From the sequence record OR896830.1: DNA of 64,000 nt. One strand, written 5' to 3'. The notes under the pieces were generated by a model that saw nothing but the letters and a program-made list of their open reading frames with translations, searched no databases and had not been told where the DNA came from. This DNA is from Escherichia phage LinBro. This document shows, piece after piece, positions 3,944-23,490 of the stretch (the first letter of the stretch is position 1; each line of letters starts with the position of its first letter). A program made the position numbers and the translations under genes.

Positions 3944-5290
3944 ATGAGTTCGAATATCTTCAGACTTGCTGATAGATTATTCAACCAACCTTTACTAGCC
4001 ACTGAATCATTAGCTCACTCAGCAGCAACTTATGTGAATAACAGATTGCTGGGTGATGTCCAAGCAGCAGTAAACTTTGATAAACCCAAAGGTGAAGCAA
4101 GAAGTCTTTTAAAAGTGAAAGATGACATTGCTATTATCCCTATTATGGGTGGTTTAACCCATCGTATGACATTCATTGATGCAATGTGTACAGGTGGATT
4201 AAGTTCTTATGAAGGTTTGCGTAGAGGCTTTGACGAAGCTTTAGCAGATGAGTCAATCAAGACTATTGTTCTGCACATCGATTCTGGTGGTGGTGAAGCT
4301 TCAGGTTGCTTTGAATTAGCACGTCACATTATGGCTTCAAGAGGCCAAAAGAAAATTATTGCTTATGTAGATGAGTTCGCTTGTTCCGCTGCATACGCTC
4401 TTGCATCTTCTGCTGAAGAAATTATTGCATCACCAGATGCAGATGTTGGTTCTATTGGTGTAATCATGGTTCATCAGGAATTAACTAAGGCATTTGAAAA
4501 GAATGGCGTAACAATTAACGTCATCAAAGCTGGTGAGTTTAAAGGTATGGGTTCACCATTCCAAGCACTTTCAGAAGAAAGCAAAGAAAGACTTCAAAAG
4601 AGAATTAATGATACCTACGCAACCTTTACAGGTTTTGTAGCCGAATCTCGTAATCTCTCTGAAGAAGCTGTAAAGAATACTGAGGCGAATGTTTATTCTG
4701 CTCAGGAAGCTCTTGAACTTGGTTTAATTAACTCAATCATGTCTCAAGATGATTTCTTAAATTACTTACAAGGTTCTGAAGAGGCTCCTGTAAGTTTAAA
4801 CGTTAACAATTCAGGTGAAGAAATGACTGAACAAGAAAAGCAAGAACTAGAAGCTTTGCGTCTTCAGGTTGCTCAAATGAAAGCTAAAGAACAGGAAGCT
4901 GCTTTGTCAGATTTGACTAATAAGATTTCTGCTTCTGCTGAAGCTTTTGGATTTGATGCAAAAGAAGCTGCAACGACTATTTTAGGTGCTGGTCTTGATA
5001 ACCCTCTGAGTGTTCTGTTTATGAATGCTATGGAAGGTGCTAACCAGAAACTTAATGAAACTATCGCGTCCCATGCTTCTGCAATGGAAGAAAAAGAATC
5101 AGAAATTACCAAGCTGAAAGAAACTGCTGGTGCTGTTCTTGAACATTCTAATGCTATGGAAGAAATGGGTAATGACGGCGAAGCTGATTTGGTTGAAGAA
5201 GAAAAAGAACCAGCTAAGAATGCTTCCGAAGACACCGCTGAACAACGCAAACTGGCTCTCCAGAATGCTCTAAAATCTCTTATCAAATAA
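3944..5290 (+). CDS. prohead protease (S49/ClpP-fold) fused to acidic coiled-coil scaffold-like C-terminus
   Basis: N-terminal region resembles the S49 (SppA-like) peptidase fold (IDSGGGEASG, DEFACSAAYALASSA); C-terminal half is Ala/Glu/Lys-rich coiled coil; sits between portal and capsid. Confidence 0.7.
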   Translation: MSSNIFRLADRLFNQPLLATESLAHSAATYVNNRLLGDVQAAVNFDKPKGEARSLLKVKDDIAIIPIMGGLTHRMTFIDAMCTGGLSSYEGLRRGFDEALADESIKTIVLHIDSGGGEASGCFELARHIMASRGQKKIIAYVDEFACSAAYALASSAEEIIASPDADVGSIGVIMVHQELTKAFEKNGVTINVIKAGEFKGMGSPFQALSEESKERLQKRINDTYATFTGFVAESRNLSEEAVKNTEANVYSAQEALELGLINSIMSQDDFLNYLQGSEEAPVSLNVNNSGEEMTEQEKQELEALRLQVAQMKAKEQEAALSDLTNKISASAEAFGFDAKEAATTILGAGLDNPLSVLFMNAMEGANQKLNETIASHASAMEEKESEITKLKETAGAVLEHSNAMEEMGNDGEADLVEEEKEPAKNASEDTAEQRKLALQNALKSLIK

Positions 5291-5712: not shown

Positions 5713-6822
5713 ATGTTGACTAATTCTGAAAAAAGCAGATTTTTCCTTGCTGACCTGACTGGTGAAGTCCAGTCTATCCCTAATACTTATGGGTATATTT
5801 CCAACTTAGGTCTGTTCCGTTCAGCACCAATCACCCAAACTACTTTCCTTATGGACTTGACTGATTGGGATGTTAGCTTGCTTGATGCGGTAGACCGTGA
5901 TAGCCGTAAAGCAGAGACTAGCGCACCTGAGCGTGTTCGTCAAATCAGCTTCCCAATGATGTACTTCAAAGAAGTTGAAAGCATTACTCCTGATGAGATT
6001 CAGGGTGTACGTCAGCCAGGCACTGCAAACGAACTGACTACTGAAGCTGTAGTACGTGCTAAGAAGCTGATGAAGATTCGTACCAAGTTCGATATTACTC
6101 GTGAGTTCTTGTTTATGCAAGCTCTGAAGGGTAAAGTTGTTGATGCTCGTGGTACTCTGTATGCTGACCTGTACAAGCAGTTCGACGTTGAGAAGAAGAC
6201 TATTTACTTCGACCTTGACAACCCTAATGCTGACATCGATGCTGCTATTGAAGAACTGCGTATGCACATGGAAGACGAAGCTAAGACTGGCACTGTAATC
6301 AACGGTGAAGAAATTCACGTAGTTGTTGACCGTGTATTCTTCAGCAAACTGGTTAAGCACCCTAAGATTCGTGACGCTTATCTTGCACAGCAGACTCCAC
6401 TGGCTTGGCAACAGATTACTGGTTCTCTGAGAACTGGTGGTGCTGACGGCGTTCAGGCTCATATGAACACTTTCTACTACGGTGGTGTTAAGTTTGTCCA
6501 GTACAACGGTAAGTTCAAAGACAAGCGTGGTAAGGTTCATACTCTGGTTAGTATTGATGGTGTTACTCAGGATGGAACTGTAGGTGTAGGTCATGCTTTC
6601 CCTAACGTTTCTATGCTGGGTGAAGCAAACAACATCTTCGAAGTGGCATATGGCCCATGTCCTAAGATGGGTTATGCAAATACTCTGGGTCAGGAACTGT
6701 ACGTATTCGAATACGAAAAAGACCGTGACGAAGGTATTGACTTTGAAGCTCACTCTTACATGCTGCCATACTGCACACGTCCTCAGTTGCTGGTAGATGT
6801 TCGTTCTGACGCTCAAGAATAA
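5713..6822 (+). CDS. major capsid protein
   Basis: 369 aa ORF after protease/scaffold; strong RBS; pronounced highly-expressed codon bias (ctg, cgt, ggt, gaa). Confidence 0.7.
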   Translation: MLTNSEKSRFFLADLTGEVQSIPNTYGYISNLGLFRSAPITQTTFLMDLTDWDVSLLDAVDRDSRKAETSAPERVRQISFPMMYFKEVESITPDEIQGVRQPGTANELTTEAVVRAKKLMKIRTKFDITREFLFMQALKGKVVDARGTLYADLYKQFDVEKKTIYFDLDNPNADIDAAIEELRMHMEDEAKTGTVINGEEIHVVVDRVFFSKLVKHPKIRDAYLAQQTPLAWQQITGSLRTGGADGVQAHMNTFYYGGVKFVQYNGKFKDKRGKVHTLVSIDGVTQDGTVGVGHAFPNVSMLGEANNIFEVAYGPCPKMGYANTLGQELYVFEYEKDRDEGIDFEAHSYMLPYCTRPQLLVDVRSDAQE

Positions 6823-6843
6823 TATTCTTAAGGAGGGTTATGA

Positions 6844-7293
6844 ATGTGTTATACAGGCGACCCAGCCAATAACCCTCTTGATAGAGTAAGAATCCTCTGC
6901 ACAGACACCAATAATGATGAAATTCTTATTGAGCAGTCTGTGCTAGAGTGGTTCTATCTAGAATCTGGAAAGGATGAAAAGAAAGCAGCCATCAAAGCTC
7001 TTAAATATTTACTCTTTCAAGTAGCCAAGATGGGAGATGAGAAGGTTGGTGGTGTTTATTTACGTAACTCTTCCAGATTCAAATCTCTGAAAGCTGTTTA
7101 TGACGACCTTGTTAAAAGCTCTGTTTCAGGACTACCCTATGCAGGTGGTATTAATCAGTGTGATATTGACATGCGTCGTCAGAATCCTTGCTCTGTCAAG
7201 AAATACACAGAATATGGTGATGCTGCCAGATACGAAGGCAGAGATTACTGCAACCGTGTTAATGGCGTATTTATTATCGAGCGAGATGAATAA
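6844..7293 (+). CDS. hypothetical head completion/connector protein
   Basis: 149 aa ORF in head-tail joining region, RBS aaggaggg upstream. Confidence 0.35.
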   Translation: MCYTGDPANNPLDRVRILCTDTNNDEILIEQSVLEWFYLESGKDEKKAAIKALKYLLFQVAKMGDEKVGGVYLRNSSRFKSLKAVYDDLVKSSVSGLPYAGGINQCDIDMRRQNPCSVKKYTEYGDAARYEGRDYCNRVNGVFIIERDE

Positions 7294-11276: not shown

Positions 11277-19274
<7,998 letters not shown>

Positions 19275-19276
19275 TA

Positions 19277-20425
19277 ATGGCAGTAGGTGAAATTCAAATT
19301 AGTGCCTTGCCTCAAGCAGCCTTACCAATTGACCTTAGTGATATCTTCCATCTTAAACAGGGTATCGAGGATAAGAGATGTACTCTTGAGCAATTACTTG
19401 CTCCACACTCAAGCCTAAGAAATAACCCACATGGTGTTACTAAGACACAAATTGGTTTAGATAACGTTATTAATGCTCTCCAGTTAGTTGCTGAAAATAA
19501 CTTATCAGATATTGTTAATGTAGCTGAGGCAAGAGCAAATCTACAGATTATGTCTTCAGAAGAGGTTAATAATCTTATTCAACAGCATATTGATGATAAG
19601 AGCAACCCACACAATACTACTAAGGCACAGGTTGGGTTAAGCAATGTTCAGAACTGGGTGACATCTAACCTTTATAATGAGGATGCAGATAAGTATGCTA
19701 CAGCAAGAGCAGTAAATAACTTGTACAAGGCTGTTCAGGCTTCTTATCCAGTAGGTACTATCCATCTCTCTATGAATCCTGCAAACCCTTCTACATATTT
19801 AATTTGTGGAGGTACTTGGGAGTTAGTTTCAAAAGGAAGAGCACTTGTAGGTTATGATAGTGCTTCTAGGCCAGTTGGTTCAACGTTTGGTTCGCAGACT
19901 ACTGCACTGACAGTTAACAACATTCCTGCACATACTCACTCAGTATACGTCACTGGTGGTGGTCACACACACGGTGCAACGGCCTCTATCAGTGCTTTTG
20001 ACTACGGTACTAAAGGGACTACAACGTTTGACTATGGAACAAAGACTGTATCTACTTATGACTATGGTAACAGAACAACCAGTGCTGCTGGTTTAACACA
20101 AACAACATTCATTAATCGTGGTTATGCTGATGGTGGTTGGAGAGGTTTATCAGTTGAGGGGGCAAGCTATGACCCAAGAGCTACGCTGACAACAGCTAAC
20201 AACCACACTCACTCTGTAGCAATTGGTGCGCATAATCACACAGTGGGGATTGGTGCTCACAGCCATTCTGTTGCAATTGGTTCCCACAACCACTCAGCAA
20301 CAGTAACAGTAACCGGAGCAGGTGAGCATTCGCACTCTGGCACAACTGGCACAACTGGTTCTGGTCAAGCGTTTAGCGTTGAACAGCCATCCTTCGTATT
20401 GTATGTATGGCAGAGAACAGCTTAA
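19277..20425 (+). CDS. tail fibre protein with His-rich (HxH) C-terminal tip
   Basis: 382 aa; C-terminal ~150 aa contain repeated HTHS/HNHT/HSHS motifs and a terminal motif shared with the next gene. Confidence 0.6.
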   Translation: MAVGEIQISALPQAALPIDLSDIFHLKQGIEDKRCTLEQLLAPHSSLRNNPHGVTKTQIGLDNVINALQLVAENNLSDIVNVAEARANLQIMSSEEVNNLIQQHIDDKSNPHNTTKAQVGLSNVQNWVTSNLYNEDADKYATARAVNNLYKAVQASYPVGTIHLSMNPANPSTYLICGGTWELVSKGRALVGYDSASRPVGSTFGSQTTALTVNNIPAHTHSVYVTGGGHTHGATASISAFDYGTKGTTTFDYGTKTVSTYDYGNRTTSAAGLTQTTFINRGYADGGWRGLSVEGASYDPRATLTTANNHTHSVAIGAHNHTVGIGAHSHSVAIGSHNHSATVTVTGAGEHSHSGTTGTTGSGQAFSVEQPSFVLYVWQRTA

Positions 20426-20435
20426 TTTCTTTACA

Positions 20436-20455
20436 GGGGCTGTATAGCCCCTTTT
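20436..20455 (+). terminator. putative terminator/attenuator between tail fibre genes
   Basis: GGGGC-tgtata-GCCCC hairpin followed by TTTT. Confidence 0.5.
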
Positions 20456-20471
20456 AAGAGGAAAATTTATA

Positions 20472-22805
20472 ATGGCAGATTACAAGTTGAGTGAATTAAA
20501 CTCAATTGATACAATTCGTTCAGACGACCTCCTTCATGTCAGGGTTAAAAAGAGACCTGAAATGCTGGGTGATGAAGACCGTCGAATGACCTATCAAGAC
20601 TTCTTAGCGTCTTTTAAACTAGAAAGATTTGTTCAGATTGCTGGTAGCACTATGACGGGCGACTTAGGGATTGTTAAGTTACTTTATGGTGGTAAGGCAG
20701 TCTTTGACCCTACAGGTTCTTCTGAGATTACTATGGGGGATGTTTTAAAGACTTTTAAAATTAATGCAAATGGTCTTAAACTAACTATTGCAGATGCTTC
20801 AAGGTCTGCAACTGTTTATCATACTCTTAATAAGCCAAGCCCTAATGAACTTGGGATGAGAACTAATGCTGAGAATGATGCTAGATATGCTAGATTAGAA
20901 GTACTAAATACTTTTAAGTCTAGGCAGACAATTGTAGCAGATGGTCAAGCACTGTTGTTAAGAAGTGCAACTGATAGCCCTTCTCTCTATGTTAGAGGTC
21001 AAGACCCATCTGGAACTAATAAATGGTATGTTGGATTTAATACTTCAAATGTTCTTGGATTATCAAATGAAGCCTCTGGCACGACATTGACATTGGATTC
21101 AGCAGGTATTAATTCTAATAAGAATTTAAATATCACTGGTCAGGTTAAACCTTCAGACTGGTCTAACCTAGATGATAGATACTTTACCCAAACATTGGCT
21201 AATCAAAGATTTGCACAGTTGGCTGGTAATAACACTTTTAACGGCACTAATACATTCAACCAACTGAGTGTTTTCAAAAAAGATGGTGAAGCAATTAGGC
21301 TACAGAATGCCAATGCTGCACAACCATTGTACATTAAAGCAATTGATAGCACAGGTGTCAACAGATGGTACATTGGTAATAGTAACGAAGGTGATAACGT
21401 AGCTCTAGAAAACTACAAAACTAGTGGCAAGATTACTGTAGGGACAAGTGTTAATATCAATAAAACACTAACTGTAACTGGTCAAGTTCAACCTTCAGAT
21501 TGGACTAACATTGACTCTAGATATATTCCGGCAGCAACATTAAGTACAATTGCAAGAACTAATGCTAAGAATACTTTTTCTCAAGGTCAGATTATTAAGG
21601 CTGATGGAGAGGGTATTAGACTTCAGGGGGTAAATGATACTGGTGGTTTGTTCTTGCAAGGTTATACTTCTGATGGTGCTAAAAAGTGGTTTATGGGTAC
21701 TAATGCTTCAGGAAACTTTACTATCAGGGAGATGGTGTTAGGTACTGAACTGTCTCTTAGAGAGAACTATATCCAGTTTAATAAGAATGTAACAATCACT
21801 GGGCAGGTTCAACCATCAGACTGGACTAACCTAGATAAAAGGTACTATACCGGTTCAGCATCAAACGCCAGATACATGTATGCAGGAAAAACTGGTGAAG
21901 GTGATAATGATGCTGCTATTGCTTGGGATGCTAAGACAGGGCTGTATAATGTCAAGACTGGAGCTACATCATCAAATCTTTTACTTCAGTTATATCAGGG
22001 GTCTGAGTCATCTACACCGTCTGCGCAGCTAAGATTTAAATGGGCGAATGGTGGTATGTGGTATAGGACATCAAGAGATGGTAATGGCTTTGAGAAAAGT
22101 TGGGCTATGGTGTACACAACTGCACAGAAGCCAACCCCTTCAGATATTGGTGCATACACTAAAGCAGAAACTGACCAGAAGATTGCACAGGCAGTAAGTG
22201 ATTCAACAGACCTTAATAAAATCTACCCTGTTGGTATTGTAACGTGGTTTAACAGTAACGTTAACCCTAATACAGCACTGCCTGGTCTAACTTGGACGTA
22301 CCTTAACAATGGTGTAGGTAGAACAATCAGGATTGCAGCAGCTAACGGTTCAGATGTTGCTACAACTGGTGGTTCAGATTCTGTAACGTTATCTGTTGGT
22401 AACTTACCTTCACACACACACAGTTTTTCTGCTACTACTTCGTCTTTTGACTACGGAACAAAAAACACTAACACGACTGGTGCTCACACCCACTCTGTAA
22501 GTGGTTCTACTTCATCTGCTGGTAACCACAGCCACTCTATTTCGTGGATTGGTCAGAACTCACAGCACTATTCCGGTGGTGGTGGTGGTTACATTGGTAC
22601 AGGGCCGGGTTACACCGATGCTAACGGTGCTCACACCCACTCTGTAAGTGGTACTGCCGCTTCTGCTGGTAACCATGCTCACAGTGTTGGTATTGGTGCT
22701 CACAGTCATACAGTTAGTGGTAACACTGGTGGTACAGGTTCTGGTTCAGCATTTAGTGTTACTAACCAGTTCTATAAGTTAATGGCTTGGGTGAGGACTG
22801 CTTAA
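20472..22805 (+). CDS. long tail fibre protein with three internal tandem repeats and His-rich C-terminal tip
   Basis: 777 aa; three ~110 aa repeats each ending TGQV(K/Q)PSDW(S/T)N(L/I)D.RY; C-terminal HTHS/HSHS/HAHS motifs paralogous to the upstream fibre. Confidence 0.65.
21000..21850 (+). repeat. three tandem ~330-nt coding repeats inside long tail fibre gene
   Basis: Repeat units at approx 21008-21190, 21351-21530, 21671-21850 encode ..(K/R)W(Y/F)(V/I/M)G..(T/N)(G)QV.PSDW.N.D.RY. Confidence 0.55.
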
Positions 22806-23456: not shown

Positions 23457-23490
23457 AAGGCTCCTTTTTACGGGAGCCTTTTTTTTTTTT
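23457..23490. terminator. bidirectional rho-independent terminator between convergent gene blocks
   Basis: 8-bp stem AAGGCTCC/GGAGCCTT, 8-nt loop, followed by T12; A/T-rich on the other side. Confidence 0.7.

Follow-up and report, generated by a model that had tools for sequence, protein, structure and literature searches.

In the distal tip of bacteriophage T4 gp37, seven iron ions (Fe2+) are held by His-x-His (HxH) motifs, each ion being coordinated octahedrally by six histidines from three chains. Among phages related to Felix O1, the C termini of two neighboring proteins have been reported to resemble T4 gp37 in both cases, namely gp76 and gp77 of Felix O1 (Felix O1 genome paper, 2010) and gp74 and gp75 of VpaE1 (VpaE1 genome paper, 2015). 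For phage Bas63 (Escherichia phage JohannRWettstein, MZ501086; accession taken from the BASEL supplement), cryo-electron microscopy (cryo-EM) showed that gp26 and gp27 both end in a tip made up of a gp37-like collar, a needle bearing the HxH motifs and a head; the di-histidine motifs number 7 in the short tail fiber (STF) and 6 in the long tail fiber (LTF) (Sci Adv 2025, PMC12609058). Here we analyzed the corresponding pair of genes in a 64,000-nucleotide stretch of Escherichia phage LinBro (sequence record OR896830.1), which we refer to as the window. Following the Bas63 nomenclature, we call them STF (19277-20425, + strand, 382 amino acids; orthologue of Bas63 gp26 and of gp104 of phage Alf5) and LTF (20472-22805, + strand, 777 amino acids; orthologue of Bas63 gp27 and Alf5 gp103). 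The pair is also orthologous to Felix O1 gp76/gp77 and VpaE1 gp74/gp75.

We conclude, with a probability of about 0.88, that STF and LTF each end in a receptor-binding tip of the T4 gp37 type, a metal-stapled trimeric needle that presents a variable head, and that the two tips are old paralogues carrying unrelated heads. An original prediction, made by a model from the sequence alone, had described two paralogous tail fiber genes at 19277-22805, where both open reading frames (ORFs) are indeed present on the + strand, and had drawn a link to the metal-binding needle of T4 gp37. Its observation is real and its interpretation is essentially right, but both are already known for the near-identical phage Bas63. 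Our analysis covers gene structure, paralogy, motif positions, homology to the T4 tip structure, orthology to Bas63, the cassette-like variability of the heads and their association with hosts. The trimeric collar-needle-head architecture is taken from the literature on the 98%-identical Bas63 protein.

A shared tip module with conserved HxH motifs

A common C-terminal module connects the two fibers, in agreement with the original prediction. BLASTP aligned STF residues 136-382 (19682-20422, + strand) with LTF residues 558-777 (22143-22802, + strand) at 30% identity (E = 4e-14), and at 35% identity (E = 7e-29) without composition correction. The module is larger than the approximately 130 residues proposed earlier, amounting to about 245 residues in STF and 220 in LTF when the collar before the first HxH is included. 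The two termini had been called near-identical; with 12 of 22 residues identical, they are better described as similar. It is correct that different shafts precede the module on the two fibers.

Repeated HxH motifs are present in both proteins as predicted, 7 in STF and 6 in LTF, and these counts equal those of Bas63. They are distributed as two ascending and five descending motifs in STF, and as three of each in LTF. Their positions are conserved, so the refuting outcome named with the prediction, a lack of positional conservation, did not occur. When STF and LTF are aligned with T4 gp37 residues 785-1026, all three proteins have an HxH motif in four columns, of which one holds the first motif behind the collar and the other three belong to the descending strand. 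Of the seven HxH columns of T4, six are filled in LTF. The succession of parts also matches that of the T4 tip (PDB 2XGF, residues 785-1026), with a putative collar, ascending HxH motifs together with an FDYGTK box, the head, descending repeats of the type GxHxHxV and finally the C-terminal strand.

Both tips match the T4 tip structure. Using phmmer against 2XGF, we aligned STF residues 146-352 (E = 3.2e-14) and LTF residues 642-756 (E = 5.3e-18), and these alignments take in the FDYGTK box and the GIGAHxHTVAIGSHxH repeats. A tblastn search with the T4 tip hit the window only in these two fiber tips (E = 2e-20 and 4e-18). The proposed link to the T4 needle is borne out by the matches to 2XGF and by the gp37-like tips seen by cryo-EM on both fibers of Bas63.

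The two window modules are old paralogues. A blastn comparison of the STF and LTF genes detected only 36-nucleotide patches in the His-boxes, with 81-83% identity. The similarity between STF and LTF tips is similarly low in Bas63, dune, phiSUSP1, Sf15 and Mijalis, and the paralogy therefore predates the diversification of the subfamily.

Organization of the short and long tail fibers

The STF protein is identical to its Alf5 orthologue and 98.2% identical to Bas63 gp26, from which it differs at 7 of 382 residues, with a single substitution in the tip. It matches Pfam Gp10_C (PF21939; E = 1.6e-17) and the tail fiber family PHROG 2097 (E = 1e-127). The region preceding the first HxH (YPVGTI...GxxWxxxxxGR...) accounts for matches to Gp10_C and to T4 gp10 structures. 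According to motif positions and the three-way alignment, the ascending HxH motifs are AHTHS at residue 219 and GHTHG at residue 230 (19931-19972, + strand), the former aligning with the first HxH of LTF and of T4 gp37. Three FDYGTK-type repeats and a hypervariable head insert follow at residues 236-309 (19982-20203, + strand), a segment delimited by a drop in identity between conserved flanks. In this segment, which includes the head YDYGNRTTSAAGLTQTTFINRGYADGGWRGLSVEGASYDPRATL, identity to Felix O1, wV8 and Sf15 is only 0.17-0.35. The descending HxH motifs are located at residues 310, 319, 328, 337 and 351 (20204-20335, + strand); three of these columns are common to LTF and T4 gp37, and a fourth is common to T4 gp37 only. 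The C-terminal strand GSGQAFSVEQPSFVLYVWQRTA (20357-20422, + strand), the segment that shares 12 of 22 residues with the LTF terminus, aligns with the end of T4 gp37 (...NIAFNYIVRLA). An AlphaFold 2 (AF2) model of the monomer has a strand at this position with a predicted local distance difference test score (pLDDT) of 89, and we infer that this strand returns to the collar.

Compared with Bas63 gp27 (784 amino acids), LTF is 67.5% identical overall, with 100% identity at the N terminus, 20-65% in the shaft (residues 160-560) and approximately 92% in the tip. It matches PHROG 4277 over its full length and contains the Pfam domains gp37_trimer (three times), gp37_C, Phage_fiber and Gp10_C. The ascending strand carries HxH motifs at residues 648, 672 and 686 and one FDYGTK box (22413-22535, + strand; motif positions and three-way alignment). 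The head insert, a variable cassette at residues 689-720 (22536-22631, + strand), is again delimited by an identity drop between its flanks: identity of residues 681-720 to Felix O1 and JH2 is 0.17-0.25, and that of the flanks is 95-100%. Descending HxH motifs at residues 721, 735 and 744 (22632-22709, + strand) were placed by motif positions and the three-way alignment, and a Pfam Phage_fiber repeat is called at residues 740-752. The C-terminal strand (22737-22802, + strand), placed by the alignments, is nearly invariant in seven aligned Ounavirinae LTFs, and all 13 LTFs compared end in KLMAWV(R/K)TA.

Just before the LTF collar, residues 470-579 (21879-22208, + strand) form a domain resembling the Mu tail fiber S protein and gp37_C. 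Residues 470-571 match Mu tail fiber S (PDB 8ju3) in phmmer with E = 6e-21, and residues 481-579 match Pfam PF12604 (gp37_C) with E = 9e-17. Judged by these domain matches, the long fiber is mosaic, combining shaft repeats of the gp34/gp37 kind with a domain resembling Mu S and a tip resembling that of gp37.

Two sets of DNA repeats were observed in the LTF gene. In the shaft, an 82-nucleotide repeat occurs three times (21107-21188, 21449-21530 and 21770-21851) with 71-82% identity and spacings of 342 and 321 nucleotides. It encodes NKxLxITGQVxPSDWxNLDxRY, the ends of the units that Pfam calls gp37_trimer, and the shaft between these repeats is the least conserved part of LTF across the genus. 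In the tip, a 50-nucleotide direct repeat (22479-22528 and 22626-22675) is 90% identical, in frame and 147 nucleotides apart; one copy lies on the ascending strand (residue 670) and the other on the descending strand (residue 719). Recombination between these copies would delete one of them and the head insert that separates them, while preserving the reading frame.

Proposed architecture and function

The following arrangement is proposed by analogy to T4 and Bas63. Each tip would begin with a collar domain of the gp10/gp12 fold, from which the chain is predicted to run outward as an ascending strand bearing the HxH motifs and the FDYGTK boxes, to a small head of variable sequence at its outer end. 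The chain would then run back as a descending strand carrying the GxHxHxV repeats, and the conserved C-terminal strand would rejoin the collar. As in T4, three chains may intertwine into a homotrimer whose ascending and descending strands build a six-stranded beta-needle. Each HxH, supplied once per chain, would surround a metal ion (Fe2+ in T4) on the three-fold axis with six histidines. Up to seven such ions are predicted in STF and six in LTF. The metal-stapled needle would act as a rigid scaffold displaying the head, and the head would bind the receptor, which for this genus would be the lipopolysaccharide (LPS) core or another surface glycan. We infer from these comparisons the identity and occupancy of the metal, the identity of the receptor and the division of labor between the two fibers.

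Because the tips are paralogues of long standing whose heads are unrelated, the virion probably offers two distinct binding surfaces, which would be used sequentially or as alternatives. The original prediction had raised the possibility of two receptor specificities, with which the unrelated heads on the two fibers are compatible. The receptors known for the genus are structures of the LPS core. Bas63 requires an intact K-12 LPS core and is listed as dependent on "rough LPS" (BASEL). The O157 Felixounaviruses TP11 and TP15 depend on the group 4 capsule and also on GlcIII, the terminal glucose of the core, and this dual requirement fits two recognition steps.

Variation of the head cassettes and association with hosts

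We compared the heads of 13 Ounavirinae including the window phage. These phages have conserved N termini, collars, descending repeats and last strands, and the insert that separates the strands is exchanged as a whole from one phage to the next. Identity reaches its low point, 0.17-0.35, at approximately residues 240-310 of STF and 681-720 of LTF. Within the genus, STF residues 1-200 and LTF residues 1-120 are 90-100% identical, compared with 17-60% for the heads and the LTF shaft. The pair thus combines an N-terminal, baseplate-binding region that is conserved with distal parts that vary.

Felix O1a, DaR-2019b and JH2 each bear the same head-plus-needle cassette on their STF and on their LTF. 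The cassette spans 269-275 nucleotides with 72-82% DNA identity between the copies; whole-tip protein identity between STF and LTF is 45-51% in these phages. The Felix O1a cassette comprises STF residues 250-339 and LTF residues 661-750 (4248-4517 and 6698-6967 of its compared locus) and is bordered by SFDYGTK and IGAHxHTV. DNA of the Felix O1 head is found in two to four places per record in Salmonella phages. By contrast, STF and LTF heads differ in the other 10 of the 13 phages, namely the window phage, Bas63, dune, phiSUSP1, wV8, ECOH1, ULIM3, KhF2, Sf15 and Mijalis.

DNA of the window STF head (19982-20203) is present in 46 phage records and DNA of the window LTF head (22506-22640) in 42, in one place each. 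Nearly all of the phages in these records were isolated on E. coli K-12, DH5a or C, and phiSUSP1, a Suspvirus and thus a member of another genus, is among them. The two heads of the window appear to travel together and to track laboratory hosts with rough LPS.

Three further phages share a different pair of heads. The Felixounaviruses wV8 and ECOH1 and the Mooglevirus Sf15 have in common an STF head HR[VI]P[ML]RG[NS]DRGG... and an LTF head RG[TN]MEI[TSH]G[SD]FG[YF]FRSD..., which suggests that both heads were transferred across genera. The LTFs of these three phages contain only four HxH motifs.

The domain shuffling envisaged in the original prediction holds across relatives, where head cassettes swap within conserved flanks, but not as a recent event in the window genome, in which the two genes share only 36-nucleotide DNA patches. 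At the population level, head shuffling is real. It is possible, although we put this forward tentatively, that the Ounavirinae head is a small cassette bounded by FDYGTK and the IGAHxHTV His-box that moves between phages and between the two fibers of one genome, with same or different heads constituting an evolvable host-range switch. Felix O1, DaR-2019b and JH2 might then have one specificity at two reach lengths, whereas the window phage and its K-12-associated relatives might carry two unrelated heads travelling together, a proposal that we hold with the same reserve. In a limited search of the literature, we found no statement on the exchange of heads within a genome. The occurrence of one head on both fibers in some lineages and of two in others, together with the association with K-12 hosts, is the sole element of this work that is new, and only mildly so.

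Alternative explanations

Amino acid composition could account for the HxH runs if these were a by-product of a low-complexity repeat rich in Gly, Ser, Thr and His, without a role in metal binding. The bias is indeed strong, with T, G, S and A making up 53% of STF residues 200-382 and S, G, T and A 60% of LTF residues 630-777, and metal has never been observed in any Felixounavirus fiber. However, shuffled sequences contained on average 1.0 (STF) and 0.27 (LTF) HxH motifs, and none of 100,000 shuffles reached 7 or 6. Several of the His positions are invariant or kept in at least 90% of 64 diverse homologues, and column for column the motifs line up with those by which T4 gp37 binds iron in its crystal structure. 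We consider a purely compositional origin very unlikely and rejected it on the basis of the shuffling and the homology to 2XGF. Equally, the shared module might have arisen by a recent duplication or by gene conversion between the two fiber genes of this genome. Such exchange evidently occurred in Felix O1, JH2 and DaR-2019b, and the window genes share short His-box patches of 36-50 nucleotides with 76-83% identity. Yet blastn between the genes yielded only the 36-nucleotide His-box patches at 81-83% identity, on which grounds this origin was rejected, and the protein identity of 30-35% is similarly low in Bas63, dune, phiSUSP1, Sf15 and Mijalis, so that a recent origin within this genome is extremely improbable.

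The possibility that the two tips are functionally redundant deserves more weight, even if we regard it as unlikely. Both would bind the same LPS-core epitope, and the duplication would add avidity rather than a second specificity. A same-head state is viable in the genus, given the single cassette on both fibers of Felix O1a, DaR-2019b and JH2; the K-12-isolated phages that carry one window head are nearly the same as those that carry the other; and the sole known requirement of Bas63 is the rough LPS core. Against this, the window STF head cannot be aligned with the LTF head, and neither head's DNA is ever found on the other fiber (46 and 42 records, one place each). Moreover, TP11 and TP15 need two different surface structures.

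Several observations weigh against our conclusion that both fibers carry a metal-stapled tip of the T4 gp37 type. The fiber density of Bas63 is too poor to resolve side chains, and metal was not observed (PMC12609058); the architecture rests on cryo-EM density with fitted AlphaFold models (PMC12609058). The window STF is without the two distal ascending HxH motifs found in T4 gp37, LTF and the Felix O1 STF, and the STF needle may therefore be stapled unevenly. The Gp10_C match of LTF, at 23.5 bits, is under the Pfam cutoff of 27, compared with 65 bits for STF. Our AF2 monomer of the STF tip, based on a 64-sequence alignment, is mediocre, with a mean pLDDT of 66; the collar (81-89) and the last strand score highly, the head and much of the needle are below 50, and the model represents one chain of a presumed intertwined trimer. 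A Foldseek search of this monomer against the PDB returned nothing at E ≤ 0.001. Its best matches, all weak (E > 1e-3) and obtained with a single-chain model, were gp10-type C-terminal domains and the Bizionia C24 fiber tip. Finally, tblastn of the 64-kb window for a T4 gp38-like chaperone gave nothing better than E = 0.7, and assembly may therefore differ from that of T4. Dependence on a gp38-type chaperone is a property of T4 and does not define the fold.

Identity of the phage and surroundings of the two genes

Over the 3.5-kb fiber region, DNA identity to Escherichia phages vB_EcoM_Alf5 and Tribble is 99.7%; the region matches 236 phage records, nearly all of them Felix O1-like. Alf5 is classified as a Felixounavirus (Ounavirinae) and has the same gene order as the window; its annotation names the two orthologues "tail protein" (gp104) and "tail fiber protein" (gp103). 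By sequence, the window phage is a Felixounavirus, a coliphage of the Alf5/Bas63 type.

Alf5, Bas63, Felix O1a, JH2 and wV8 share an identical gene order, in which the fiber pair follows baseplate wedge and LTF-platform genes. Upstream of the fibers, the window contains a Baseplate_J gene (16643-18112), a gene for a DUF2612-like wedge protein (18115-18972) and a gene for a 100-residue protein (18972-19274). Downstream of LTF there are two small ORFs, followed on the opposite strand by thymidylate synthase and dihydrofolate reductase (DHFR) genes. The two ORFs match only PHROGs of unknown function, and the second is annotated as a "putative holin" in relatives.

The 46-nucleotide spacer between STF and LTF contains a G+C-rich, terminator-like hairpin (20435-20452, + strand; -15.9 kcal/mol, z = -2.2). 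A Rho-independent terminator is annotated at the corresponding position in wV8 and KhF2. A terminator consensus scan did not call the hairpin at 20435-20452 because its T run is short. The hairpin might lower the expression of LTF relative to STF. Farther downstream, at 23457-23480, there is a strong hairpin with a run of T residues behind it on the + strand, and it is terminator-like on the - strand as well. It marks the border at which the rightward module of late structural genes meets the leftward thymidylate synthase-DHFR module, and the GC skew changes sign there. ARAGORN found no tRNA genes across the 64-kb window. Felix O1 was reported to have 22 tRNAs (Felix O1 genome paper, 2010), and the tRNA cluster of the window phage must lie outside the 64-kb window.

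Comparison with known systems

Bas63 is the closest characterized relative. It belongs to the same genus, and gene order and STF length (382 amino acids) are the same; its LTF has 784 residues compared with 777 in the window. In the Bas63 LTF there is an HHxH motif at H692/693/695, where the window LTF has NHSHS. A preprint on gene essentiality in Bas63 (PhageMaP) treats tail fibers only for T7 and T5 and contains nothing on gp26 or gp27. In Felix O1, the STF contains 9 HxH motifs and shares its head with the LTF of that phage, whereas the window STF has 7 and the two window heads differ.

Identity to the T4 gp37 tip is only approximately 30-40%, and the T4 heads are unrelated to those of the window. 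The number of HxH motifs is seven in T4 gp37, 7 in STF and 6 in LTF. T4 gp37 and LTF each have one FDYGTK box, whereas STF has three boxes of this type. T4 uses a jointed fiber built from four proteins, whereas the window phage carries the tip on single-protein fibers. The T4 receptors, OmpC and E. coli B LPS, need not hold for the window phage.

Outside the gp37 group, the collar-type domains of T4 gp10 and gp12 (Pfam Gp10_C, PF21939, and Collar, PF07484) resemble the region before the first HxH. Matches of T4 gp10 to STF end at residue 221, in the first HxH, and gp10 therefore has no counterpart to the HxH needle and head. Side tail fibers of the lambda Stf type, from phages and prophages, have GxHxHxV repeats and the FDYGTK box in common with the window fibers, and STF residues 239-343 match lambda Stf and T-even gp37 in tblastn. 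According to the Sf14 paper, the fibers of Mu come with the chaperones gp50 and gp51, of which the Sf14 genome has no homologues. The tip module itself is common: we found 496 homologues at E ≤ 1e-5, many of which are tail fibers of E. coli, Salmonella and Klebsiella prophages, with the Pfam domains Collar (PF07484, in many), Phage_fiber and Gp10_C.

The two tips are likely determinants of host range in a genus that is used in Salmonella diagnostics and has been considered for biocontrol. A common scaffold with small exchangeable heads indicates where tips could be cut for swapping, namely at the borders formed by FDYGTK and the His-box. The architecture itself has been published for a 98%-identical protein, and the window adds nothing new about it. 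Its added value is only comparative: the lineage studied here has two heads, both tied to hosts of the K-12 type, and the Felix O1 lineage has one head on both fibers.

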